From NCBI GenBank assembly GCA_000091205.1, contig AP006498.2: 64,000 bases of DNA; one strand, given 5' to 3'. The DNA is from Cyanidioschyzon merolae (lineage: Eukaryota). Shown here in pieces: positions 734 to 62,133 of this stretch (the first letter of the stretch is position 1; each line of letters starts with the position of its first letter). The position numbers and the translations under genes were made by a program. Below the pieces are notes generated by a model, which saw only the letters and a program-made list of their open reading frames with translations, ran no database searches and was not told the DNA's origin.

Positions 734-3070
734 TTGATGAGCTGGAATAGTGAGCGACGCGAGATCACATACGATTCCAGGTCGCTGCGCATTAACGGTA
801 AGCCGTTCTTCTGCCTCTCGGGGGCAGTGCACTATGTGCGTTCGCATCCGTCCGCTTGGCCGCAGATCTTCCGCTGCATGCGACGGGATGGGCTAAACAC
901 CGTAGAGACATATGTTTTCTGGGGTGATCATGAGTTTGAGCCTCCAGAGATGCCTGACGCGGAGCCGCGAGCAGACTTTAGTGGACCGCGCGACCTCGTG
1001 CGCTTCCTCCGCTGCGCAAAGTTGCACGGTTTAAACGCGATCCTCCGGCTGGGCCCCTATGTATGTGCGGAAGTGAATTATGGAGGCTTTCCATGGTGGT
1101 TACGCCAAGTATGTGAAAAGGGTAGCTCCAAGCCGGTGCGCTTTCGAACCTGGGATCCAGCGTACTGCGCGCAGGTGGAACGCTGGCTCAAGTATCTCGT
1201 GGATCATGTGCTGAAACCTGCACGAGTTTTCGCTCCGCAAGGCGGGCCCGTGATCTTGGCACAGATCGAAAATGAATACGCCATGATCGCCGAGAGCTAC
1301 GGCCCTGATGGTCAGCAATACCTCGACTGGATCGCCTCGTTGGCGAACCAACTGGCGCTCGGTGTCCCGCTGGTTATGTGCTACGGCGCCAGCCAGCGAG
1401 AGTCTGGACGCGTCATCGAGACCATCAATGCTTTTTATGCACATGAGCATGTGGAGTCGTTAAGGCGTGCTCAGGGGGCGAATCCGCAACCACTACTGTG
1501 GACAGAATGTTGGACCGGCTGGTACGACGTCTGGGGAGCGCCGCATCATCGACGCGACGCGGCAGACCTCGCGTACGCCGTGCTGCGCTTTTTGGCCGCA
1601 GGCGGTGCAGGCATTAACTACTACATGTACTTTGGAGGTACCAATTGGCGCCGGGAGAACACCATGTACTTGCAGGCTACCTCCTATGACTATGATGCGC
1701 CACTGAATGAGTATGTCATGGAGACGACCAAGAGCCGCCATCTGCGACGATTGCACGAAAGCATTCAACCTTTCCTAAGCGACCGCGATGGTGTTCTAGA
1801 TATGAGCCGCTTGGAGCTAAAGGTGTTCGAGGGCGAACGCCGCGCCATCCTCTATGAACGATCAACGGTTTCAGGTGATGCGGATCACAGGTCGGAAGAA
1901 AGTGTTCGGTGTGTATTTGACTCGGCCGACATTCGCGTGCACCTCGCTCTGGAGCTGCGGGAGATTATCGTGAACGCTGCGAGTAGGGATACCGGCCAAG
2001 ACCTCCGGTGGCGGATGCTCCCCGAGCCACCACCGCTGCGAGCAGCCCTATCCGATACATCGGCTACGCTGGCTACGATACCGGATCTTGTGGACGCTAC
2101 AGCGGGCACAAGCGACTATGCCTGGTACATACTGCGATGCCCTACAGCGCAAGGCAGCGGTCTACTACAATTAGAGGTCGCCGATTTCGGGCGAGTATGG
2201 AGGCGGAAAGCGGTCGATCAAGGCGACGACGCGGAGCGGCAGCCACTCGAGTGGGCCGCCGCCGGCCCAGAGCCGCCAGTAGAGGATCGCTTTCCGAACG
2301 CATGGAATTCCACGGAGTACGGGTACGGTATTGTAGAGGTCGGTGCGATCGACTGTCACGAGGAATATGTCGTGCTGGTGAGCTCTCTCGGCATGGTAAA
2401 GGGCGACTGGCAACTGCCACCGGGATACGGCATGGCTCGTGAACGCAAAGGCCTTCTCCGGGCATCGTACCGCTCCGATGTCACCTTCGCAGATGACGAG
2501 TGGCGGGATGCGCTCGTTGTTGGCTTCGCTGCCGGTCTCCGCGGAGAGCGCATTCGGAGTGTCATAGAGGGCGACGCAGACGCGTATCCGTATCTGTGGA
2601 CACCTCAGAAAGCCGCGCTCAGCGGCAGGCGATTCTCTTGGCCGCGCTGGTATCGCGCATCGCTAGCGATACCCCCGCCAAACGCTGATGAAACCGAGGG
2701 CATCATTTTAGACCTCTATGAAAGCGGCGTTGAAAAAGGATGGATCTATATGAACGGAGAACCGTGCGGGCGCCACTGGCGAGTTCACGGAACTATGCCG
2801 AAAAACGGTTTTCTTCGACAGGGCGACCAGGAGGCACCGATTGAGCAAGTGGGCCATGGCCAGCCGACGCAGCGGTATTTTTATATACCGCCGTGGCATT
2901 TGCATGCCAAGGGACGCCCTTCCACACTCGTCATATTCGATGAACACGCAAATGGCGAGTACCGGGAGTTCGAACCGCATCGCCTGCGCGTATACCGCGC
3001 TGTGCTCCGCGTTGTCGAGTCGACGCCCACATCCGATAACGAGAGCAAGTCTGAAGCGTTTATCGTCTGA
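734..3070 (+). CDS. Glycoside hydrolase family 35 beta-galactosidase
   Basis: 778-aa uninterrupted ORF. The N-terminus matches the GH35 consensus ('ITYDSRSLRINGKPFFCLSGAVHYVRS', 'NTVETYVFWGDHE', 'ILRLGPYVCAEVNYGGFPWWL'). 'QIENEY' is the catalytic acid/base motif and 'PLLWTECWTGWYD' the nucleophile region. No signal peptide is visible. Confidence 0.85.
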   Translation: MMSWNSERREITYDSRSLRINGKPFFCLSGAVHYVRSHPSAWPQIFRCMRRDGLNTVETYVFWGDHEFEPPEMPDAEPRADFSGPRDLVRFLRCAKLHGLNAILRLGPYVCAEVNYGGFPWWLRQVCEKGSSKPVRFRTWDPAYCAQVERWLKYLVDHVLKPARVFAPQGGPVILAQIENEYAMIAESYGPDGQQYLDWIASLANQLALGVPLVMCYGASQRESGRVIETINAFYAHEHVESLRRAQGANPQPLLWTECWTGWYDVWGAPHHRRDAADLAYAVLRFLAAGGAGINYYMYFGGTNWRRENTMYLQATSYDYDAPLNEYVMETTKSRHLRRLHESIQPFLSDRDGVLDMSRLELKVFEGERRAILYERSTVSGDADHRSEESVRCVFDSADIRVHLALELREIIVNAASRDTGQDLRWRMLPEPPPLRAALSDTSATLATIPDLVDATAGTSDYAWYILRCPTAQGSGLLQLEVADFGRVWRRKAVDQGDDAERQPLEWAAAGPEPPVEDRFPNAWNSTEYGYGIVEVGAIDCHEEYVVLVSSLGMVKGDWQLPPGYGMARERKGLLRASYRSDVTFADDEWRDALVVGFAAGLRGERIRSVIEGDADAYPYLWTPQKAALSGRRFSWPRWYRASLAIPPPNADETEGIILDLYESGVEKGWIYMNGEPCGRHWRVHGTMPKNGFLRQGDQEAPIEQVGHGQPTQRYFYIPPWHLHAKGRPSTLVIFDEHANGEYREFEPHRLRVYRAVLRVVESTPTSDNESKSEAFIV

Positions 3071-3980
3071 TAGGTACGCACGGGCGTAGGGCTTGTCCGT
3101 GTGTTGGATTGATCATGCTTTGCCATGACATCCACGGAGATATCGCACGATCGTCCATACGGAACCCTGGGATAGAAGCAGAGTTGTTGAGGACTGGATG
3201 TTCGTTGCGGGCAGCGCATGCAAGATTGCAAAGAAAGGTTCACGTCCAGTGCCCAGAGCCGCTCCGGTCTCGCACGGAAATGCGTCGCATGGGAGTCGAC
3301 CAATTGGATAAACAGTCGTCCGATCGTTACGAGTACTTTGCGCGTCCGAACGCGTTCAACGGAAGAAGCACAGAAGGCCCCGAAGTATGCTACGCAAGTC
3401 GCGGCTGGGACTTGACGGAAACAGGCTAAACCTTTACCAGGTCCCGCCAGGGAAGCGCACTCTAGTGCACCGAGATGAACCAATGAAAATAGGTGTTCGG
3501 GCTCTGCCTGTAACACGTTTTTTACACGAGTCCAAGAGCAACACGTTGACCTGTACGAGCGGCAAACGCAGGTACGGGACTTTGATGACTCTCGCCGCAG
3601 CCCGCATCGCACTGATACGAACACAGACGCACGCTGTTCCCGACTTGCATCGCCCAGACGGATTCACTGCCTGTATGGAAGCGGCCAGGGCGATAACGTC
3701 GACCGCCTCACATTGAAGCGCAAGGCTGCTAGTGCATTCACGCATTCGCGCCATCCCAAGTCATGTTGAGCGCTTGTCGAAGCGTGTCGATACGCACGTT
3801 CCCTGCCAACCAATGCGGTAGCTGCGGGAGCACCGGCGTGGCGGCACATGGCACGCTCGGTGCGCTGCATCGATACCAAGGCCGCACCGCGGCGCTGTCC
3901 ATATCGAGAACGACTTGCAGCCGAGCTGACCAACACTGCAAGCAACGAGAGGCTAGCGTGTCCTCCGGAGGATGCTTTTC

Positions 3981-5668: not shown

Positions 5669-6428
5669 GGCGGTCACAGACCGCGGCATTCGATTGTATA
5701 TTATTCTCATGTGTACAGTACAGCGTTCAGGCTTCATAATTGCATTGTTCGCGAAAAATCCAATGAAAAGAACACAGTGTCCTTCAGCAACCAGAGACGA
5801 AGGTGCGCTTGGATCACATAGCCTTGGAACGGCGGTTTGTACACTTTATTCGTACTTGTCTATATCGTTCCCACATGTATGTAGCATTTGTATAGTAGAG
5901 CGCTCGATTTTGAGTGGAGCGCGAACGTCGCGGTGGCTTGTACGCGTCACGAACGGGTTGCGACGCACACGAGCAGCAAGCCGGCCGCCGGCTTGCTCTG
6001 CTGACTGCTGAGCTTAGCGCGCACCGCAACCTGCCAACCTCCCAACCGAGTTGACGAGAGCAGCCCGCCTTGTCTCGATTAAGTGTCTTGCATGCAATCA
6101 GGTGCTTGCGGAAAGCACCAGCATTTGTGAGCAGTTTCCAACGCACATTCGTTGGGGGCTCTCGCGCACCTACGTTTCAATCACGACACTCGCCCCGGAA
6201 CTGCACGGAACCAGTACGTCGAGCTTGTCCAAAACCTGTCTAGGACATATCCTCAAACAGTATCAGCGACACCATTGGCCTCGCGTACCGTTCCGGGAGC
6301 CTTCTCGAGACAGACGCTCGCCGTGCAAGACGTTGCCGACGCGTGCTGCGACTGCTTCGAACCCACGTCGTGTGCAGCCGCCTGGCGTTTGCGCTCAATC
6401 CATGTAAAGTATCATTCCACTTGAGTGT

Positions 6429-7220
6429 TTACGACGGCTTCCACTTGATACTACATCCGATGCTCGGCAGTTGATTTTCCGGAGGTGACTGTCCATTCAC
6501 GCATAACTGGATGGCGTTCCGGAGGTCCTCACCTGTCACAGGAATATCGTTTCCGGGTCTACTGCCGTCCAAACGCCCCCTATAGAACAGCTTGCGCTCG
6601 TGATCCAGAAGGTAAAAGTCGGGCGTGCACGCGGCTTTCCAGCCACGAGCAACATCCTGTGTTTCATCGTAGAGAATCGGAAACTGATAGCGACGCGTTT
6701 TGATTTCCTCCGCCATACGCTCCGGTGCGTCGTCCGGGTGTGTTCCGACAAAGTTACTGCTGATGCCAACCATTTTCACCGGGCCAAACTTTCCAGAACT
6801 AATATCTGCACTCAACCGAGAGAGCTCGCCAGCAATGTGCTTCACAAAAGGACAGTGCGCAGCCAAGAACACCACAACGAGGGCTTTCGGCGGCGGACTG
6901 TCCGCGTAGAGCGAATCGAGAGACACGATTTCTCCTGTAGTTACGTCGGGTAAAGCAAACGCCGGCATAACCGTGCCGAGTTCAACCATAGCAGACTCCG
7001 TACGAACCATTTGAAGCTGTTGAAACGTGCTTCTAGCAGACGGCAAGCGCGTACCCCGGCTGACTCGTCGCGCAGTGCGAGCTTCGCTCCGCACAGACGC
7101 TGTTCGTCGTCCCCGAACAAGGCCTTGGCTCACTGGCCTTGTCGTCGTAAGCCTAGGTGCTAGCAAGAACCCCAAGTATCCCTTGACGCATGCAGTGGCT
7201 CGCATGCGCTCCAGTTGCAA
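6429..7220 (-). CDS. Thioredoxin-fold redoxin (AhpC/TSA-redoxin family) with presequence-like N-terminus
   Basis: Thioredoxin-fold motifs 'KALVVVFLAAHCPFVKH' and 'TPDFYLLDHERKLFYRGRLD'. The first ~70 codons are Arg/Ser/Thr-rich and the ORF's first 60 bp overlap the end of the TnpB-like ORF. The true start may be the internal Met at about 7010 ('MVRTESAMVELG'). Confidence 0.6.
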   Translation of the reverse strand: MQLERMRATACVKGYLGFLLAPRLTTTRPVSQGLVRGRRTASVRSEARTARRVSRGTRLPSARSTFQQLQMVRTESAMVELGTVMPAFALPDVTTGEIVSLDSLYADSPPPKALVVVFLAAHCPFVKHIAGELSRLSADISSGKFGPVKMVGISSNFVGTHPDDAPERMAEEIKTRRYQFPILYDETQDVARGWKAACTPDFYLLDHERKLFYRGRLDGSRPGNDIPVTGEDLRNAIQLCVNGQSPPENQLPSIGCSIKWKPS

Positions 7221-7690
7221 ATGCTTCTGGCGGCACAGTCGAGACGCTGCGGTCGGCAGTACAGTAGTGGCGAGAAACCCGCCGTAAACACGACGTCTGC
7301 CACTGACGTGCAGACGCCTCCCAGCCTTTCTCGACCGGCACCCACTACTGCTTCCAACTTCTTCTCATATAATTCCACTTTTAGAGGTTGTCCAATAAAG
7401 TTCACTCTTGTGGACCTTCGGGGTCTTTTCTCGAGCACTGCAGATCTTACATTGATCGCAGCATTGAAGTCACGATTCACAAACTCAATCCGTTTCTTTC
7501 CGTTGGTTGTACGTACTAATGCAAGTAGTCCACGAACTTTCGCCATCTTTTTCATTTGCTCTTCCGTCAGCGGTCCGTATTTTTTTATATCCTCAGGGTT
7601 CCGCTGACACTTTTCCATCTCCACTCTCTGAAGTGTACAACCCAGTTCATGGTGTGTATAAGACGTTCGAAACTCATCTATCGGTATCAT
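7160..7690 (-). CDS. TnpB/Fanzor C-terminal segment (TS-x-x-C zinc-finger region + RuvC-III 'RDxNAAxN')
   Basis: 'IDEFRTSYTHHELGCTLQRVEMEKC...KRIEFVNRDFNAAINVRSAVL'. The tail 'LKVELYEKKLEAVVGAG' aligns with the relic at 60957-61280 ('LRLEVCAEKLKPIAGG'). Confidence 0.7.
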   Translation of the reverse strand: MIPIDEFRTSYTHHELGCTLQRVEMEKCQRNPEDIKKYGPLTEEQMKKMAKVRGLLALVRTTNGKKRIEFVNRDFNAAINVRSAVLEKRPRRSTRVNFIGQPLKVELYEKKLEAVVGAGRERLGGVCTSVADVVFTAGFSPLLYCRPQRLDCAARSICNWSACEPLHASRDTWGSC

Positions 7691-7818
7691 AACGAAACGC
7701 CGTGTACACTCCTTGTACGTTCTTGTCGTTGGAGCTGGCGTAGTTCCTTTTTGGGTCTTCCAACGCCCTGCTCAGTATGCCACAACGAGCCTCTGACTTT
7801 GATCCTCTTTGAAGGCAC

Positions 7819-8370
7819 TCAACTGATTGAAAAATTCGCGAATGCACGCTGCTTACCACAGTATAGCTTCATTCGCAAACGAGCCCACCGGGGCTTTGTA
7901 TACTCCTCCCACAGCGGCTTCCAGTGAGCAACAGGAACTTCCATGATTTTCCGAAAAGCATCAAAGTCCGCTCCTCGGCTCGTCACCTCGCTCAAAGTTT
8001 CCAGGTGCTCTTTCATTCCTGAATTGCAAGTCTCGATGTTCTTCGTCGTATTCAATATACGGGATTCTCGGTAATATCTCGCTCTCGAGAACCTCAACAG
8101 ACGCATGTCTTTCTGAAGTAAGTTGCCGTCAGTACGAGCTTCCGCACTCCTGGGTACTGCGATGGTAATGATGTTAGTGCTCCCGGGGTCCGCGCCAACG
8201 ACAAAGTCGTTATCCTGCACTTTCTGTGTGGCAGGATCCGAATCCTTCTTTTCATCATGCTTCGCCGCGTCAACGACATGGTCGTTATCCTGCACCTCCT
8301 GTGTCGCAGGATCCGCCTCCTTCTCATATTCATGGTTCGCCGAGGGCGGAACTGGACGACCTTTCTTCAA
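7819..8370 (-). CDS. TnpB/Fanzor middle segment containing RuvC-I (GxDxG) and the helical linker
   Basis: '[30 protein letters not shown]', then '[16 protein letters not shown]'. A partial upstream duplicate '[19 protein letters not shown]' is present. Confidence 0.6.
8190..8330. repeat. ~72-bp tandem duplication (2 copies) inside the TnpB-like coding region
   Basis: 'acgacaaagtcgttatcctgcactttctgtgtggcaggatccga' recurs ~72 bp later as 'acgacatggtcgttatcctgcacctcctgtgtcgcaggatccgc'. On the minus strand it encodes 'DPATQ(E/K)VQDND(H/F)VV' twice. Confidence 0.55.
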
Positions 8371-10512
8371 CAGCCGATAGTTTACACACTAGGCTACTCC
8401 ATCGGTTTCGATGATCCCAGTGAATACCTTTTGCTTGCTCACTTTGAGACGTTTGAAATCGAAGATATTCTTCCAGTGCGTCTCCCGGTTTTCACCGGAG
8501 AATTCCTCCCTGTTGACACTGAACTCCGGACTGATCTCCTTCATGATGCCGTGAAGGATTCTGGAGTCGATAGTCATAAAAAGTGACTTGATGTTGCACA
8601 TTGGAACCATGTTGAACCGCTTCCCCATTAGGACAGCCTTCCGTCTCTCCCACTCTTCATTGCTTTCCTCACTCAGCTTCATCTCTGCCTTGGGATCGAG
8701 CTCTCGGTCCAAAAACAGGAAATAGCGCAGGACGAGGCGATAGTATCTTTCCTTATCTTTTTTCAACTCTGATACGTTCTCTGCTGGATTCGCAAACCCT
8801 AGTACCGCACGATGCTCTTGTATAACCGCACGCATTACAGAAGCTTCATTCGTGAACTAGTTTGACGCTTTCTTGTCAACGAATTCGACCTCATCTTCAC
8901 GCTTACGATCTTTCGTGACGCCATTGATAATCGCACATTTCCCATTGCGAGATAGGCCCAGGTAGAGTGCAACCACGGCGCGTATCATGAAACGTTCGAG
9001 GTTCGTTGTCAAATGGTTCTTCAGGTTCGTGATGCACTTCATCGCCCCATAGTCGTAAATATCCCGGTCACCCCTGTATCAAATACCGTTGGAGATGTAA
9101 AAGGAGTATTTTTGGCAGAGGGCGTGCACTCGCTCATTTTCCGTCCGCGTTCCCCCTGTGCCAAGCATCAGGTGACGAATAAAGGTCGTGTCGAACAACT
9201 CGTCTGGAACCTCGACTGTTTCCATGTGCGTCACGTCTTCATACATCTCCCTCGCCAAATGCATCAGTCCTGACGACGCCTTGACAAAACTCTTGGAGTA
9301 CGAATCGACACGGTTTCTGATAGCGTCTCGCAACTTTTCCTTGTACGGATTTTTGATATGTTTAAGAAGACCGGCTTTCACCCCCGTCTCGTCGCACAGT
9401 TGTCTTTCGCGCAGCTTTTGACGTCGGGCCTACCCCTTTTGCTTCTACTTCTTTTCCTGCTCTTCTGGACTCGGATTTTTTTTTGTTTTTTTCTGGCAGC
9501 CGGCGACACTGGGCCTCCAGGATCGTCGACTAGCTTTTTCATAACTCTCCTTTTTTAGTTTTTTTAAAAAGAACGCTCTTTGAACCCTTCTGTTATGTAC
9601 TGCGAAAAAGCACTTGACTAGACTTGTTTGAGGGTTGAAACATAATTGATCTGAAAACTATACTTTGCTACGACTTAAAAGCAAATGCAACTTGTACGTT
9701 AGAACAACAAGTCGACGAATGATCATGATCGCGTTTCCATGCAAAGGCGAGTTGCACGCCGTATCTCTTGCGGCCCTGATCTCCAAGAAGCGCTATCCAC
9801 CGCACTATTTAGAAAAAAGAACATAAACCAACCCCTAACTAGCAACGAAATAATAATTTCTTTCCGTCTCTACTGTAAACGATAAAAGGGCGAAAAGATT
9901 TCCATATTGTGGAAAGTTTAGCTTGTCTGCGGAAGGTCCCTCGAGCCAGACGAGTCTGCAAGCCTGGTGCCCGGTGTGCCTCTAACGTGGCTGATGCCGC
10001 TGCAATGCCTGCGTATCTCGTCTCCAAAGCGGCTTATTCTGGGACTAGAGGCAGTTATGCTGCGTCTGGACGTCATCCTGTTCGCGGTGGACTCCTAGTA
10101 TGTTGATTCGCGCTGCCGCAGGCAGTACGTATGTCTGCGCAGCTTGCTGGCTCCCAGAGTCATTATGCACTCGGAGTCCAAGTCAGCTGAACGACGCTTC
10201 GAGCCAATGCCCTCACTGGTATGGCAAAGCTATTTTGTCTCTATGATGCATCCGCTCCAGTAGTTTAGGCACTACGGCGGGTGCTCACGGTAGGTACTCG
10301 GCGCAAGTTAGAACGCACGAAACGACCAGTATATCCGAGAGGACGTATGGGTAATGGAACGTTAAGGCGGGGTACAGCACGATGGACACTTTTTCGATAA
10401 CCAATATTCATCCTGCAATCTGGGATCCATGGCCAATGTACGCGAATTATGTCATCGAAAAAAATTGGACATGCGCCCGCCATCGGCCTTGTGGCTCTCC
10501 TGATGGCAATGT

Positions 10513-10680
10513 CGCCTCTATGGGATACTACAATCGATGCTCGCCTCTATAGGATACTACAATCGATACTCGCCTATATGGGATACTACAATCGATACTC
10601 GCCTCTATGGGATACTACAATCGATACTCGCATCTGATGATGCTACAGTCGATGTGCGCCTCTGATGATGCCGTGCACGC
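10513..10680. repeat. 29-bp tandem repeat ('cgcctctatgggatactacaatcgatact'), ~4 good + 2 degenerate copies
   Basis: Direct reading of consecutive near-identical 29-mers located ~200 bp upstream of the UROD ORF. Confidence 0.8.
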
Positions 10681-10852
10681 GCACCGGAAGCATCGGGTGC
10701 CACCGCGTTGATCTCGGCGCATCGTACTCGAGTCGTCGCGTTTACAGCTTTTGGGTGCAAGCCTAGGTCGTCGTCTTTTCTTGGATAGCATCTGGGCCAA
10801 CTTGACGATAACGAAGTAAAATCGGAACACTGATTGAGCGCTATTAGGAGAC

Positions 10853-22635: not shown

Positions 22636-22986
22636 TCAATCCAGCGGCTGTTTGGATATCGTACGCGGCGAGCGCAATCGCTGTGGTGTCGATACCATCA
22701 CCGCCATTTTCGCGAATATATTTTTTGGGACTGAACGTCGTCTGATATTGAGGGCTACGTTGAAGTCTCGGCTGATGAACTCCCTGGGTTTATTGTCTCT
22801 GATGGAACTCACCAGTACATGGAGTTCCCCAATTGGTGCGCGCTGAGCGAATTGGCACCCTGTTAGCGCTTCGTGCTTTTCCATGGCCCAGGCGCTCCGC
22901 TGGCTTTTCTCCATCTCGACCTTCTGAAGTGTACACCCGAGTTCATCCCATAGCTTTTTTATTTCTTCAAATGAACACGCTTGCAC
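22636..22986 (-). pseudogene. Relic C-terminal fragment of a Fanzor/TnpB-like gene (TS/zinc-finger region + RuvC-III)
   Basis: 'ELGCTLQKVEMEKSQ...REFISRDFNVALNIRR' parallels 'ELGCTLQRVEMEKCQ...RIEFVNRDFNAAINVRS' of the 7160-7690 copy. No upstream RuvC-I/II ORFs are present, and a lower-GC ORF-free patch lies at 22990-23800. Confidence 0.55.
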
Positions 22987-33802: not shown

Positions 33803-34302
33803 AACATGAGGGCAAAACGCTCAGATGCGCATGGAATTCTCGCCGGGACGTCCAGGCGAGCTCTGATCGCTGCGGCCTTCCAGATCAATCTGGTGGCGAT
33901 GCGAAGTCGCTGCAGCGCACGCGCACACTGCACCTTCTAGGCGGAAGGGTTGCGTCGGAGACGCGATGCGCCAGCGGGGAATCGCGCCGACGCTCTCCGC
34001 GGGATACCAAGGGCGCTCTGCCTCTGTGGTGGATCCGCATTGGCGATTTAGGCACCGTTGCGGATGCCTGTGGCAGGCTCTCGACGCACGATGGAATGTG
34101 ACGAATAACCAGTGCCTCCGAGCTGCAAAGGATGGGTACTGGAACTTGGACATAGGAGCGTGGAACGATGGCTGCTTCACCGTTCGCTGATATCAAGCGC
34201 GCAATCAGAAAGGCCCGGCCGCTGTGCGTGTGTGTCAACGTTCTTTCAAACAAGAATGACCGCGCCCTGTATTCGCGCAAAACGATCGCAGTTTGGTTAT
34301 AG

Positions 34303-48075: not shown

Positions 48076-51000
48076 CGCTCGTAAGCCGGTACACCCGGGA
48101 GCACTGAATATCGGAATGCCTGCACCGCCACACCCGTTTTTATTTTGTTTGTTTGTTTTTCTTGCAGGTATTCAACATAAGCGGTTTATTGTGTGGATTG
48201 AGGCAAAGTTGCTGGGAGAATTTATGCTAGCGTTCATAGCTTGGGAACAACCGCCTTACTTGGACGAAGTCAGTCGAGATTCGGTCAGCAGCTGAATGAA
48301 CCAATCCACCACCAGTACGTATTCTGAACATCGTGCATCCAAAACAGCACAAGTCAAACGCTATCAAGATGCATATATCCTGGTGAATCCATCATGCTAC
48401 GTACATTGTTTGCGCAATATTATCAAAGACGCTACAGAAAGTAACTTATCCGTGCCTTTGATACAAACGTGGATGAAGAGATACGGATGGACAGCGGAAA
48501 GCCCGCGCTGCGATTCGAGACGCTCGCGCACCCAATCACGGACAATCACGTTCGGTACCGAAACGCGAACGCTTCCTACATGAGCGACCGGATTTCGTGT
48601 CAGTCGCCAAGACTTCATTCAGCAGCTGTGGTAGACCTGTATATGAGCACGCTATGGCGGGCAAACCGCTTCCTGGAAGAAGAGACATGCGAGCATGACG
48701 ACAATATCAGCCCTGGCGGCGATGCTCTTGCCTGGTCGCCTACGAATCGTAACACGGACATGATCGTCCAGTGGGCCATGCTTCGTCGGACCACGTTCCG
48801 TGGCTTCTTCTTCTCACATTTTTCTGCCCGTCTCGTAGATAACGTCACTATCCATCACGCCAGTGCGGTTCCGGAGCATGTATCAGGCAGTAGCACTGAG
48901 CTGCTCTTCGTGTGAGTCTGTTCGTCCTGGTGCAATGCAGCCGAGTGCGTCTTCTCTGTTCTAGAACTGTCTTTTTTCCACTCGCCAATCAATAGACTAG
49001 TCGTTCGCATCCATGGCGCGGAAAGATGCAGGACGTCACAGAGGTTCACATAACAACGGATTCGAACAATGCTCGCCTGGTTTCATTCGCCTTGAAGCAT
49101 CCCATCAAGTATCTGTTCGTACGAGTCCCGGACGCAGGGCAACCGGGCGTCCATATTTCTCTGGAGTTTTTCCATCAGGAATTCGTGTGACAACGCAAGG
49201 GATGCTCAGTGCAGGGGATTCCATGCGGACTGATCCTAAGGATAGAGACATGCACACACGCTTCCTAAAATACTCGGACGCGTCTCCGTGCCATCTCGGG
49301 AATGGAAACGTCTCTAGAGCAGGTGCCAAAGAGTATGAAACGATCCTCAGAATCCAAAACAATTTGCGGGCCAACGTCGAGCGCTCCATGGTGCACATCC
49401 TGTGGACGTTGTACTGTTTTGTTGCCTCACTTTACTGGCCCAGAGAAACAGAAACGGATGGGATAGGTTCCTGAAGTCTGGACCGGAGCAAGTGACAAGC
49501 TGCTGGTGACGGAGCAGCTGGAGCTGCAAGCAAGTTCGGAGCACATGTCGTACCGAGAGCGAGAATCGCCTCTGTTCTGACAAGCTCATCGTGTTGAGCC
49601 CGGACTCGGTTCGACAGACGTCGTATGCAAAGCACGGCTGAAACCTAGTTTCTGCCTTTCTTCATGTTGCGCTACTACGTTTTCGTGAACAGATCCCTAC
49701 ACAGCAAAGCAGATATGCCCTCCGAATCGGAACGAGCTGACCGTTTGATGCGCCCCTGCCACGCAGTCCACATACACCTCATGAAAGCGCATGAAATTGC
49801 CCTAGACATTTGCGTAGTGTGCTTCATGGCCTTCTCGGTGCGCTACGCATACTCTCGGCGAACGCGTATTAAGCATTCGCACTACCTTGCGAGGAGCATT
49901 GGCGGGGCTCGTTCATGATTAACCGTTTGCAGGGAGGATATGGACAGAGGTTCATAGGATCCATAAAAACCTACGGACCATCAGTCTCACTGCACGCTGT
50001 GAAACCCAGGCATGAGTCGAGCAGCGAAACGTACTTTCATTTGTTCAATGTAGACGAAGAGAAAGATAAGGCAGCGGGCATGGGTCCCGGTTTCAAGAGT
50101 ATCGTGGCCATTGCGGCAGCTCTGTGCCAAGACGACAGCGCCAAAGATCCGAAAGCACATGAAGGTGGTTGGCTTTGTCAGGCTGAAGCACGATCGGCAT
50201 TCATGCATGATAGACGCCAGGAGGCACACCAGCAAGCGGAATGACTTCATCAGCGCTTGCCTCAACGCTCTGAGCAATGAATCGGGCGGCGAGGGAGTTC
50301 TCTCTACACCTCTTTCTGAGAGAATAAGCGCGTCGAAACTGCTCTCGCGAAAGATCTTTTGTGCGATTACGTGAGATACCCGCGAGATTTGCCAACGGTT
50401 TCGGCTGCACGGAGCCTAGAGACAGGCATTCGCCGAGTTTTCCAGTCAGCTGCAAAAGGAAATGACCGATCAATCGCGTCGTTTGGTGCTAGCCTATGCC
50501 GCTGGACATGCTGCAGCGTACAATAGCTGCACTGGTGCTCCTTCGACAAGCGCGCGCACCAAGTACAGGAATCGACTCTGAACGAGTACCGTCAATGATT
50601 TCACGACGATTTAGGCGCATCACGACCACGGGTGTACACCAAAAACCTGCATAGAAGAAGAGAGTGAAACAGAGCCGCATCCGCCGGGTTGTGTAGGCAA
50701 GTTGAACTAACGTCGGTTAGGGAAGCAATCAAAGGTGCAAGTCGTGCTTTGGTACGCCTCCGCAAGCAACCATGCCCGCGAGCATGCTCTGCACGGAGAC
50801 TTGAAAGCCTGGATCAACATCCGGAAATATTTCGTGGATCTGAAGCATTCAGCGGCATTGTTTGGAGCAAACTTGTCACGAGAATATTGAGTACTCTTTG
50901 TTCGCATCATGCTGAAATACGGAAGACTTTCGCTGAGATGAAAACAGCACCCAGTCTACGAAGCATTGGATTCCAGCCCAGAAGAAGGCACAGGACCGGA

Positions 51001-60268: not shown

Positions 60269-60898
60269 GAGCATCCGCGCGATCGACGATGACTGCTGAG
60301 CACTCAGCGATGCCTAGGTCAGACTTGTCTCAAATGCAAGTCTTTCACCTCAATTGTGTTCCACAGCTAGGCGCTTGTCATGAACTGCTTTTTCGCGGTT
60401 TATAGGCGACGCCTTCCAAATGCGTCCATTTGATGACATGAAAAGGCTAAGGGGAAGGTATGGACATGCAGGAGGGGGTTTCGAGGGACCGATGTTGCCG
60501 TGTGCTGGGAGAAGTACGAAAAATATCCCCTTTTCACGGACTATCAAGCAAAGAAGAGCAAGTGACGTAGAAGAGTACGAAAAGAGCATCCGCGCGATCG
60601 ACGATGACTGATGAGCACTCAGCGATGCCTAGGTCAGACTTGTCTCAAATGCAAGTCTTTCACCTCAATTGTGTTCCACAGCTAGGCGCTTGTCATGAAC
60701 TGCTTTTTCGCGGTTTATAGGCGACGCCTTCCAAATGCGTCCATTTGATGACATGAAAAGGCTAAGGGGAAGGTATGGACATGCAGGAGGGGGTTTCGAG
60801 GGACCGATGTTGCCGTGTGCTGGGTGAAGTACGAAAAATATCCCCTTTTCACGGACTATCAAGCAAAGAAGAGCAAGTGACGTAGAAGAGTACGAAGA
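60269..60898. repeat. Tandem duplication, 315-bp unit x2 (near-identical)
   Basis: 'gagcatccgcgcgatcgacgatgactg(c/a)tgagcactcagcgatgcctaggtcagacttgtctcaaatgcaag...' starts at 60269 and again at 60584. It generates twin ORFs 60350-60589 (-) and 60665-61096 (-) sharing a 60-aa C-terminus. Confidence 0.85.
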
Positions 60899-60956
60899 AA
60901 GAGAGTGGAGATAGACGAGGAAGGTTTTCGTCCCACGAGCCAATGACGGGGCTGTA

Positions 60957-61280
60957 ATGGCACAAAGGACAAGCGTTCGAGGAATCCTTACAGAGGTGAA
61001 TCGAATCAGCTGCACTGCATACATGAAATTCGTAAAACGAGACTTCAAAGCCGCCATCAATGTCAGACGATGTCTGGTACTGAAGACGAGACCCACTGAG
61101 CTGAACCGAGAGAACTTCTTGAGGCGTCAGCTCAGACTCGAAGTTTGCGCGGAGAAACTGAAACCAATAGCAGGCGGCCGGTCCAAAAAGCAGGCAGACC
61201 TCTGCGAAAGGATGCGCGTATACAACCTACGTGATCGCGAGCTGCTCTTCTTTTTGCCGACCATAGATAAGATTCGGTGA
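60957..61280 (+). pseudogene. Relic C-terminal fragment of a Fanzor/TnpB-like gene (RuvC-III 'RDFKAAINVRR' + tail)
   Basis: 'KFVKRDFKAAINVRRC...LRLEVCAEKLKPIAGGRSKK' aligns with the 7160-7690 copy ('EFVNRDFNAAINVRS...LKVELYEKKLEAVVGAGRER'). Its stop codon (61278-61280) coincides with the inner boundary of the right inverted-repeat arm. Confidence 0.55.
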
Positions 61281-62133
61281 AACGACATTTGCCAATGGCA
61301 TGATACCTACCACGGAATATGCTTCCAGGCGCTATGGTCTCTTCTGTTCGCGTGAAAATGGGTCTCGGGCGTGGACTTGAGTCATCGCAGCGATCGCTTG
61401 CATGGCAGCATGCATCGAAGCTCTGCACGAATGCAGGGAGCCTAGACGCATCCTTATTACGCTGCTTGATCTTCAGCAAGGATTCCCCTCCGGTGCTCGG
61501 TACATCACGGTCAACTTCGCTTCCCAGAAATCGCTTTGCGAGTAGAAGAGCGAGCGCGTGTAGCGGACAGTATACGCGCCCTACAGGATCGCCCAGAAGA
61601 AACCCGTGATCGTAGCGCGCAGCACCGGGCGCAAACGTTCAGGCGGGCATCGAGGCGAGCCTTCTGTACACGTACAAAGCGTGTACCGAGAGATGCAGCA
61701 AGTGTTCACGCGCAACGTCTTCGTGGCCTTTGGGTCAGGACAGCATGCTGTAGGCATACGGGGAAACGCGTCCAAAGTCAGGTGTCACCCGGTTGCGAAG
61801 GTCGCAGTGAGGCTGAATGTAAGGCGCATGTGAATGACACGCAACGCATAGATGCAACCATCGTCTGCACACGAAACGCGTCGACAACAGTCGGGAACTG
61901 CGACATCGGCGCCCGGAGGCTGCCACCGAAATCACCAGATTCCTACTGAAGGAATCGGGGGCATGCGAGCGACTTGCGTATTCCAAGTCGGAGATGGCGG
62001 AGCGGGGACTAGGACGCAGTCGCAGCATAGGCCCGCCAACGCTGGTGCCAGTGGCATTGCGAGGCACACTAATTTCAGAGCCACCGCCCGCGTTCTATTC
62101 GTGGATCCCTCCCATTTATGTCTGACATTCGTG
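61278..62133. repeat. Right arm (~0.86 kb) of second inverted repeat pair
   Basis: Reverse complement of 56391-57252. For example, 96/96 aa with one substitution between 56915-57205 and 61319-61609. Confidence 0.85.

Follow-up and report, generated by a model that had tools for sequence, protein, structure and literature searches.

A decayed copy of the Fanzor1 element CMe-1A in the Cyanidioschyzon merolae genome

The window analyzed here, a 64,000-nt stretch of contig AP006498.2 from Cyanidioschyzon merolae, carries on its minus strand a broken gene related to the RNA-guided nucleases TnpB and Fanzor, which a preliminary description had singled out as the best candidate for a previously undescribed system. 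The segment from 10457 to ~7222 (minus strand) is almost certainly one insertion of the transposable element CMe-1A, old and inactivated, on chromosome 16 of C. merolae 10D. Its identity as CMe-1A is demonstrated by the alignments reported below, and there is nothing new in the element as such, which has been known since its description in 2013 (Bao and Jurka, 2013; Mobile DNA 4:12; PMC3627910).

Identity of the Element

We took the 3169-bp CMe-1A consensus, together with its 734-aa protein, from the supplementary files of the 2013 report (PMC3627910). Global alignment of this consensus with the window gave 86.1% identity over 3140 columns. By blastn, consensus positions 1–2196 correspond to window 10457 to 8265 (84.1% identity) and positions 2117–3152 to window 8269 to 7244 (86.5%); the final ~17 nt of the consensus aligned poorly. 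Since consensus and window align end to end, the window element is a copy of the published element, and the 86% match refutes the claim of a previously undescribed system.

According to the 2013 report, C. merolae has one Fanzor1 family, CMe-1A, present in ~150 copies that are each ~80% identical to a consensus of ~3 kb. CMe-1A has no terminal inverted repeats, and its target-site duplication could not be determined. Over its first 635 bp it shares 95% identity with a separate element, TE-N2_CMe, and some copies still encode intact proteins. The authors left CMe-1A unclassified (Bao and Jurka, 2013; PMC3627910), and no Helitron relative or RepHel gene is known for it. The window copy fits the reported identity, size, and copy number and is compatible with the reported lack of terminal inverted repeats, and its divergence from the consensus lies inside the range reported for the ~150 genomic copies.

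The feature at 7222–10457 (minus strand) can thus be described as a nearly full-length, decayed CMe-1A copy, as judged from the consensus alignment and from the same ends in a comparison with 71 metagenome copies. Its GC content is 0.48, compared with ~0.55 in the surroundings. The element consists of a ~640-bp 5′ head, which it has in common with the short element TE-N2_CMe, one intron-less Fanzor1 gene, and a short conserved 3′ tail; the protein of the family consensus is 734 aa long. The window copy has the same host, 5′ head, single-exon Fanzor1 ORF (open reading frame), and 3′ end as the CMe-1A consensus, but differs from it by six stop codons, three 1-nt deletions, an extra 75-nt repeat unit, and degradation of the last ~40 nt.

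The Fanzor1 Gene Has Decayed into a Pseudogene

The consensus ORF (positions 906–3110) corresponds to window 9542 to 7284, where a Fanzor1 pseudogene (7284–9542, minus strand) extends from an ATG at 9542 to a former TAG stop, now TAC, at 7286–7284. The gene is therefore longer than the span of 7160–9381 originally assigned to it, and the element around it reaches from 10457 to ~7240/7222. The pseudogene contains six nonsense codons (four TAG and two TGA, at 9447, 9432, 9081, 8859, 8391, and 7774) and three frameshifts, each due to a 1-nt deletion relative to the consensus (at 9474, 7834, and 7339). Other differences from the consensus are 63 extra in-frame bases in a 75-nt repeat and two in-frame 3-nt deletions.

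The co-linear minus-strand ORFs from which the gene had been recognized are indeed present. Three-frame translation, checked codon by codon, placed ORFs 9381–9079, 9042–8857, 8835–8389, and 8370–7819 in one common frame, the breaks between them being in-frame TGA 9081, TAG 8859, and TAG 8391. The reading then shifts frame near 7834 and passes one in-frame TGA (7774). Most of what had been counted as at least four frame changes are thus in-frame stops: inside 7160–9381 there are only two frameshifts (7834 and 7339), and the third, at 9474, lies upstream of that span.

The conceptual translation of the pseudogene was 68.5% identical, over 750 columns, to P0001, an intact 752-aa metagenome homologue. 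The six stops face sense residues of P0001 (K, D, R, V, L, and G), and the consensus also has sense codons at these places. Since every stop stands opposite an ordinary residue in both P0001 and the consensus, introns are excluded and decay remains; of the two options offered earlier, a decaying copy or a gene with very short introns, only the former stands. We conclude that the window gene is a pseudogene and not an intron-bearing gene.

We consider it very improbable that the gene is functional after all, its stops and frame changes lying in very short introns or being overcome by a variant genetic code, by readthrough, or by frameshifting. In favor of this reading, the DNA preserves all three catalytic motifs, and some CMe-1A copies give intact proteins according to Bao and Jurka (PMC3627910). 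However, all six stops stand opposite sense residues within conserved blocks with no added sequence around them, each of the three frame changes results from the loss of one base present in the consensus, and the consensus gene has a single exon. Moreover, the neighboring genes give exact annotated proteins under the standard code, and a variant code or readthrough was therefore rejected. That C. merolae has only a few dozen introns also counts against a functional gene. Being a pseudogene without the intact ORF of an active nuclease, the window copy is incapable of RNA-guided cutting and could at most be the source of a non-coding transcript.

Catalytic Motifs and an Internal Repeat

The translated frame contains the motifs of the family in the expected order, all on the minus strand. 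The TDG motif of the Fanzor1 WED domain (IIETDGVA, 8392–8406; a signature according to PMC10711439) comes first, and its residues T358, D359, and G360 are invariant or almost so in an alignment of 86 sequences. It is followed by the RuvC-I motif GADPGSTN (8173–8190), which has the catalytic Asp and the "DPG" signature, by IPIDEFRTS (7661–7678) with the catalytic Glu, which is the "alternative" RuvC-II Glu of Fanzors, and by the RuvC-III motif NRDFNAAINV (7448–7474) with the second catalytic Asp. The three catalytic residues, D484, E656, and D725 in P0001 numbering, occupy invariant columns of the 86-sequence alignment. On the chain of SpuFz1, the Fanzor1 protein of Spizellomyces punctatus, they fall on residues 777 and 935 and on the NRD motif; once a 394-residue fusion tag is discounted, 777 and 935 become D383 and E541, the active-site residues reported by Saito et al. 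(PMC10432273). The "DPG" signature of Fanzors, the "TDG" signature of Fanzor1, and the Glu in D-E-x-x-T-S ("Ealt") were described by Yoon et al. (PMC10711439).

This set of motifs and their order are far beyond chance, and the domain order first proposed, from RuvC-I to RuvC-III with its RDFNAAINV, is real. Two details of that proposal require correction. A RuvC-II motif in a third frame is unnecessary: the strand QRLVVAY*AGRW is read in the frame of the C-terminal ORF, TGA 7774 having replaced a Gly codon, and the catalytic Glu in Fanzors is the E of DEFRTS itself (the Ealt concept; PMC10711439). The literal spacing P-x-x-TS-x-x-C is absent, the actual sequence being PIDEFRTSYTHHELGC.

Just upstream of RuvC-I, a 75-nt tandem repeat (8190–8342, minus strand) is present in two copies and encodes a 25-aa acidic unit. 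The copy number is ~1 in the consensus, two in the window, and four in P0001, in which the acidic repeat region (residues 384–469) is predicted by AlphaFold to be disordered (predicted local distance difference test, pLDDT, <50).

The Protein Belongs to Fanzor1

The protein of the element belongs to Fanzor1, the eukaryotic branch of the TnpB/Cas12 RuvC nucleases. When a profile built from 86 homologues was run against the six-frame translation of the window, it matched 9462 to 7828 with E = 2.6e-129 and 7846 to 7382 with E = 1.3e-37. The same profile, searched against the PDB, found the Fanzor1 proteins of Parasitella parasitica (PpFz1, 9cf0; E 2.9e-23), S. punctatus (SpuFz1, 8gkh; E 1.9e-16), and Guillardia theta (GtFz1, 9cer; E 1.1e-12); nothing besides these three was significant in this search, and Fanzor2 gave no match. 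An AlphaFold (AF2) model of P0001 computed from the 86-sequence alignment had a pLDDT of 83.4 and a predicted template modeling (TM) score of 0.81. In a Foldseek search of the PDB with this model, the top seven matches were all Fanzor1 (E 4e-16 to 1e-13, TM 0.50–0.72). The WED-REC-RuvC architecture was thus seen in an intact homologue 68.5% identical to the window translation, and not in the pseudogene.

A database search with the joined translation returned 50 close relatives from hot-spring-type metagenomes (51%–81% identity), two full-length relatives at 37%, and 13 Haematococcus proteins; these green-algal proteins are the nearest relatives beyond the Cyanidiales-type sequences. When 1.84 billion representatives were searched with a profile, 3812 family members emerged. 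Hence the assignment to the Fanzor/TnpB family is borne out by profile, structure, and motifs, and can be narrowed to Fanzor1.

There is next to no chance that the motif matches are accidental similarities without true TnpB/Fanzor homology. Taken alone, the lack of matches to the fragments in Pfam, in NCBIfam, and, with single sequences, in the PDB would agree with such a reading, as would a first AF2 model from a shallow, 15-sequence alignment, which was unusable (pLDDT 36). The PDB yielded no match to a single sequence or to a 15-sequence profile, and the Fanzor1 structures were reached only by the 86-sequence profile. The reading is nevertheless refuted by the profile matches to the window (1e-129 and 1e-37), by the three Fanzor1 structures in the PDB profile search, by the Foldseek E-value of 4e-16, and by the consensus alignment (86% DNA identity to a published Fanzor1 element); the 3812 family members in the representative library also speak against it.

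Another origin that we regard as most unlikely is a prokaryotic TnpB (IS200/IS605 or IS607) or a Fanzor2, recently acquired or present as contamination, instead of a Fanzor1 in a eukaryotic transposon. In its favor, a remote Haematococcus homologue weakly matches Pfam Cas12f1-like_TNB (E 5.8e-4, below the cut-off), and Cas12 variants and Fanzor2 appear among the Foldseek matches, only weakly (E 1.6e-3 to 2e-2). Fanzor1 structures, however, match better by at least 12 orders of magnitude: the Fanzor2 structure 9b0l gave E 0.018 and TM 0.16–0.25 against the P0001 model, compared with 4e-16 for Fanzor1. The profile matched Fanzor1 only, the Fanzor1-specific TDG motif is present, the closest relatives outside Cyanidiales-type sequences are the Haematococcus proteins, no ORF for a TnpA-like or other transposase is found in the element, and the copy is flanked by exact C. 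merolae genes.

Ends of the Element and Its 3′ Tail

The 5′ end of the element lies at 10457, immediately after a T-run, and the window flanks read ...AATTTTTTT/CGATGAC at the 5′ end and ...GAAGCA/TTTGCAAC at the 3′ end, where the boundary is uncertain by ~20 nt. No long inverted repeat was seen between the element ends, and the conserved 3′ block, looked for in reverse complement at the 5′ end, gave a chance-level match only.

The ends were compared among 71 related loci from metagenomes. The core common to all these copies begins near window 9800, and upstream of it at least four different heads are found. The head in the window, which corresponds to consensus positions 1 to ~635, is TE-N2-like (9817–10457, minus strand, from the consensus alignment; the inner boundary is approximate). 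It is carried by only a subset of the metagenome copies and directly follows the T-run in the window and in most loci. At the 3′ side, the BLAST similarity of 38 metagenome loci to the window stops at 7259. A multiple alignment showed that the family runs ~40 nt further 3′, ending in ...CCACTACTGTAC-ACCGCTGG-(hairpin)-GGCG. The terminal hairpin is frequent in metagenome copies (median z −1.9; 16 of 35 below −2), and in a few of them (L029, L018, L007, and L062) it is built from unrelated sequence, that of L029 being a perfect stem of 15 bp. In the window copy the hairpin is lost (z +0.7).

The 3′ hairpin, the absence of inverted repeats, the variable 5′ heads, and the T-run before the 5′ end are suggestive of a resemblance to Helitron2-type elements. 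The Fanzor1 elements CRe-1, CRe-2, and CRe-3 of Chlamydomonas reinhardtii are carried by non-autonomous Helitron2 transposons (Bao and Jurka, 2013; PMC3627910). Like CMe-1A, they are algal, high-copy, and non-autonomous, encode only Fanzor1, lack terminal inverted repeats, and have a 3′ hairpin and 5′ parts that vary, with a T-run ahead of the 5′ end; unlike CMe-1A, their genes have 5–10 exons and their ends match verified Helitrons.

Two side observations concern the ends. A 10-nt inverted match, seen by eye, pairs GACAAAACGT with ACGTTTTGTC (consensus 5–14 and ~3097–3106, the latter across the stop codon). Its counterparts in the window, at ~10453–10444 and 7297–7288, are both degraded, and it lies ~65 nt from the 3′ end, compared with the 20–30 nt expected of Helitron2. 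In addition, at L020 3607–3689, at L033 1768–1850, and in L032 and L005, a TE-N2-like head is located no more than ~80 nt past the Fanzor 3′ end or adjoins it in reversed orientation, which hints at tandem or clustered insertions.

The conserved 3′ tail (7222–7405, minus strand) extends over the final codons of the ORF, and no other place is a candidate for an omega-RNA scaffold. An nhmmer profile of 34 tails matched the window from 7349 to 7244 (E 8e-24). Searches of 6400–10700 against Rfam gave no match, and a scan of the tail for bacterial promoters and terminators, which is unsuited to a eukaryote, found nothing. In the Fanzor1 systems that have been tested, the transposon end gives rise to the guide RNA, which reaches ~15 nt or more into the flank (PMC10711439, PMC10432273). 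By analogy, CMe-1A may plausibly encode a guide (omega) RNA at its 3′ end. An intact family member would then bind RNA transcribed from the element 3′ end, as SpuFz1, GtFz1, and others do; ~15–30 nt of this RNA, running into the flanking DNA, would serve as the guide, as in other Fanzor1, and the protein would presumably cleave double-stranded DNA that matches the guide and adjoins a short motif, by means of its D/E/D RuvC site.

No observation speaks against the identification of the element; the following points limit the picture. Its 3′ end in the window can be placed only between 7240 and 7222. For the tail, RNAalifold run on 35 sequences gave four pairs and −0.03 kcal/mol, that is, almost no consensus structure; covariation in a long-range helix proposed by hand and in the terminal hairpin was no better than in shuffles (80–253 of 500); and the consensus tail showed only a modest reduction in folding energy (z −1.7). 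These results lend no support to a structured RNA in the 3′ ~200 nt, and the RNA-guided mechanism of CMe-1 proteins is one that we infer by analogy only. With respect to the protein, neither Pfam nor NCBIfam yielded a relevant match, whether the individual ORFs or intact homologues, P0001 included, were scanned. The OrfB_IS605 and OrfB_Zn_ribbon models of Pfam, which had been proposed as a check, gave no match; the 86-sequence profile led to Fanzor1 structures. Finally, the C4 zinc finger, which Bao and Jurka (PMC3627910) place between the T-S motif and RD as a family hallmark, is not conserved in the clade. The corresponding region, TSYTHHELGCTLQRVEMEKCQR...VNRD, has no more than two Cys and two His and lacks any CxxC pair, and the 86-sequence consensus retains one conserved Cys only. 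The absence of the zinc finger is a clade-level loss or variant, and it does not overturn homology.

Other Relics in the Window and the Genomic Setting

The family is multi-copy in the window, as had been proposed, since further relics were found with the family profile and the consensus. Both C-terminal relics named in the preliminary description (22636–22986 and 60957–61280) are real. The first, at 22729–22986 (minus strand), reads ELGCTLQKVEMEKSQRS ... SRDFNVALNIRR (tblastn 47% identity, E 2.5e-12) and corresponds to consensus 2737–2944 (72%, E 3e-23). The second forms part of the degenerate remains of another copy at 60339–61298 (plus strand; family profile and consensus), in which 60957–61124 is the C-terminal coding relic and a trace of the 3′ tail runs to ~61205. 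In the same remains, two 93-nt pieces 315 nt apart (60339–60431 and 60654–60746, plus strand) match the consensus just upstream of the ORF, which suggests a duplicated, degenerate copy.

The pieces at 60339–60746 extend the initial list of relics, as do two more features. An older and larger Fanzor1 relic at 49196–50839 (plus strand) covers profile positions 101–588 (E 6.4e-18 and 2.6e-10) and has lost the catalytic Asp and Glu (GMGPG for DPG, VNDFTT for DEFRTS). An isolated fragment at 33982–34206 (minus strand) resembles the 5′ head of CMe-1A, that is, TE-N2_CMe (consensus 36–254, 70%, E 2.5e-18).

The products of eight of the ten long ORFs in the window are exact matches to C. merolae 10D proteins (BAM81735 to BAM81750, including CMP089C and CMP105C), which confirms the eukaryotic nuclear context suggested earlier. 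From the CMP convention of the locus tags, we take the window to lie on chromosome 16. Its 55% GC and dense intron-less genes are in keeping with C. merolae.

The element is inserted between a gene for a thioredoxin-fold (AhpC/TSA-like) protein and a uroporphyrinogen decarboxylase gene. A contig from another member of the Cyanidiales (L075, 3344–7071) is syntenic, with AhpC-like, uroporphyrinogen decarboxylase, and mitochondrial carrier genes, and has, at the position of the 3.2-kb element of the window, a ~2-kb spacer in which no Fanzor sequence was detectable. Because the neighbors are the same and no Fanzor lies between them, the comparison is compatible with a lineage-specific insertion of the window copy. 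An "empty site" from which to fix the element ends was not found: L075 is too diverged between the genes, and L074, a 98.9%-identical metagenome contig, starts within a minisatellite. This 29-bp minisatellite (10512–10671; ~4–5 copies, 78%–93% matches), situated between the element 5′ end and the uroporphyrinogen decarboxylase gene, is absent in all fetched loci, and L074 breaks off inside it.

Discussion

Among the known systems closest to CMe-1 is SpuFz1 (PDB 8GKH, 9CEU–9CEZ), for which omega-RNA-guided DNA endonuclease activity has been demonstrated experimentally. The P0001 model matches SpuFz1 with a Foldseek E of 4e-16 and a TM of 0.71, and the two share the D/E/D RuvC site, the DPG signature, and the Glu in D-E-x-x-T-S, although sequence identity is only ~15%. 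SpuFz1 keeps a CxxC...CxxC zinc finger, which is absent from the CMe-1 clade; the latter carries an acidic repeat insert, predicted to be disordered, ahead of RuvC-I. Prokaryotic TnpB proteins (IS200/IS605, IS607; e.g., ISDra2 TnpB) belong to the same superfamily, that of RuvC nucleases with RNA-guided DNA cleavage whose guide RNA is encoded at the element 3′ end. In contrast to them, CMe-1 has no TnpA partner and no match to Pfam OrfB_IS605 or OrfB_Zn_ribbon, is much larger, has Fanzor1-type REC and WED insertions, and resides in a eukaryotic nuclear transposon.

In metagenome copies, too, the family is mostly decayed. Only one locus (L001, the source of P0001) had an uninterrupted ORF, of 752 aa, with all three motifs; the screen required strict motif strings, so that the number of intact copies may be underestimated. 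In L001 (5800–6060), the P0001 ORF was called from a GTG; the consensus ATG is out of frame there, and a GTGAGT stands at the junction, where a short intron is possible.

The window locus is an inactive and already catalogued transposon copy, mainly of use for repeat annotation, and what interest remains lies in intact relatives elsewhere. Speculatively, and with the odds against it, the CMe-1 lineage might be alive in hot-spring Cyanidiales as a thermoacidophile Fanzor1 nuclease without the usual zinc finger, whose omega RNA would be the ~180-nt, hairpin-ending 3′ tail, the hairpin and the 5′ T-run being perhaps recognized by a Helitron-like transposase. If so, Helitron-like (single-strand, rolling-circle) recognition would classify an element that has been unclassified since 2013.

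Within the literature searched, the 2013 description is the only paper to discuss the C. merolae Fanzor lineage. The demonstration that Fanzor1 proteins are programmable RNA-guided DNA nucleases came in 2023. An intact CMe-1 member may merit testing as a genome-editing enzyme, because its host grows hot at very low pH and its clade is without the canonical zinc finger, and it may also be a case of Fanzor guide-RNA adaptation to a transposon that has no inverted repeats.

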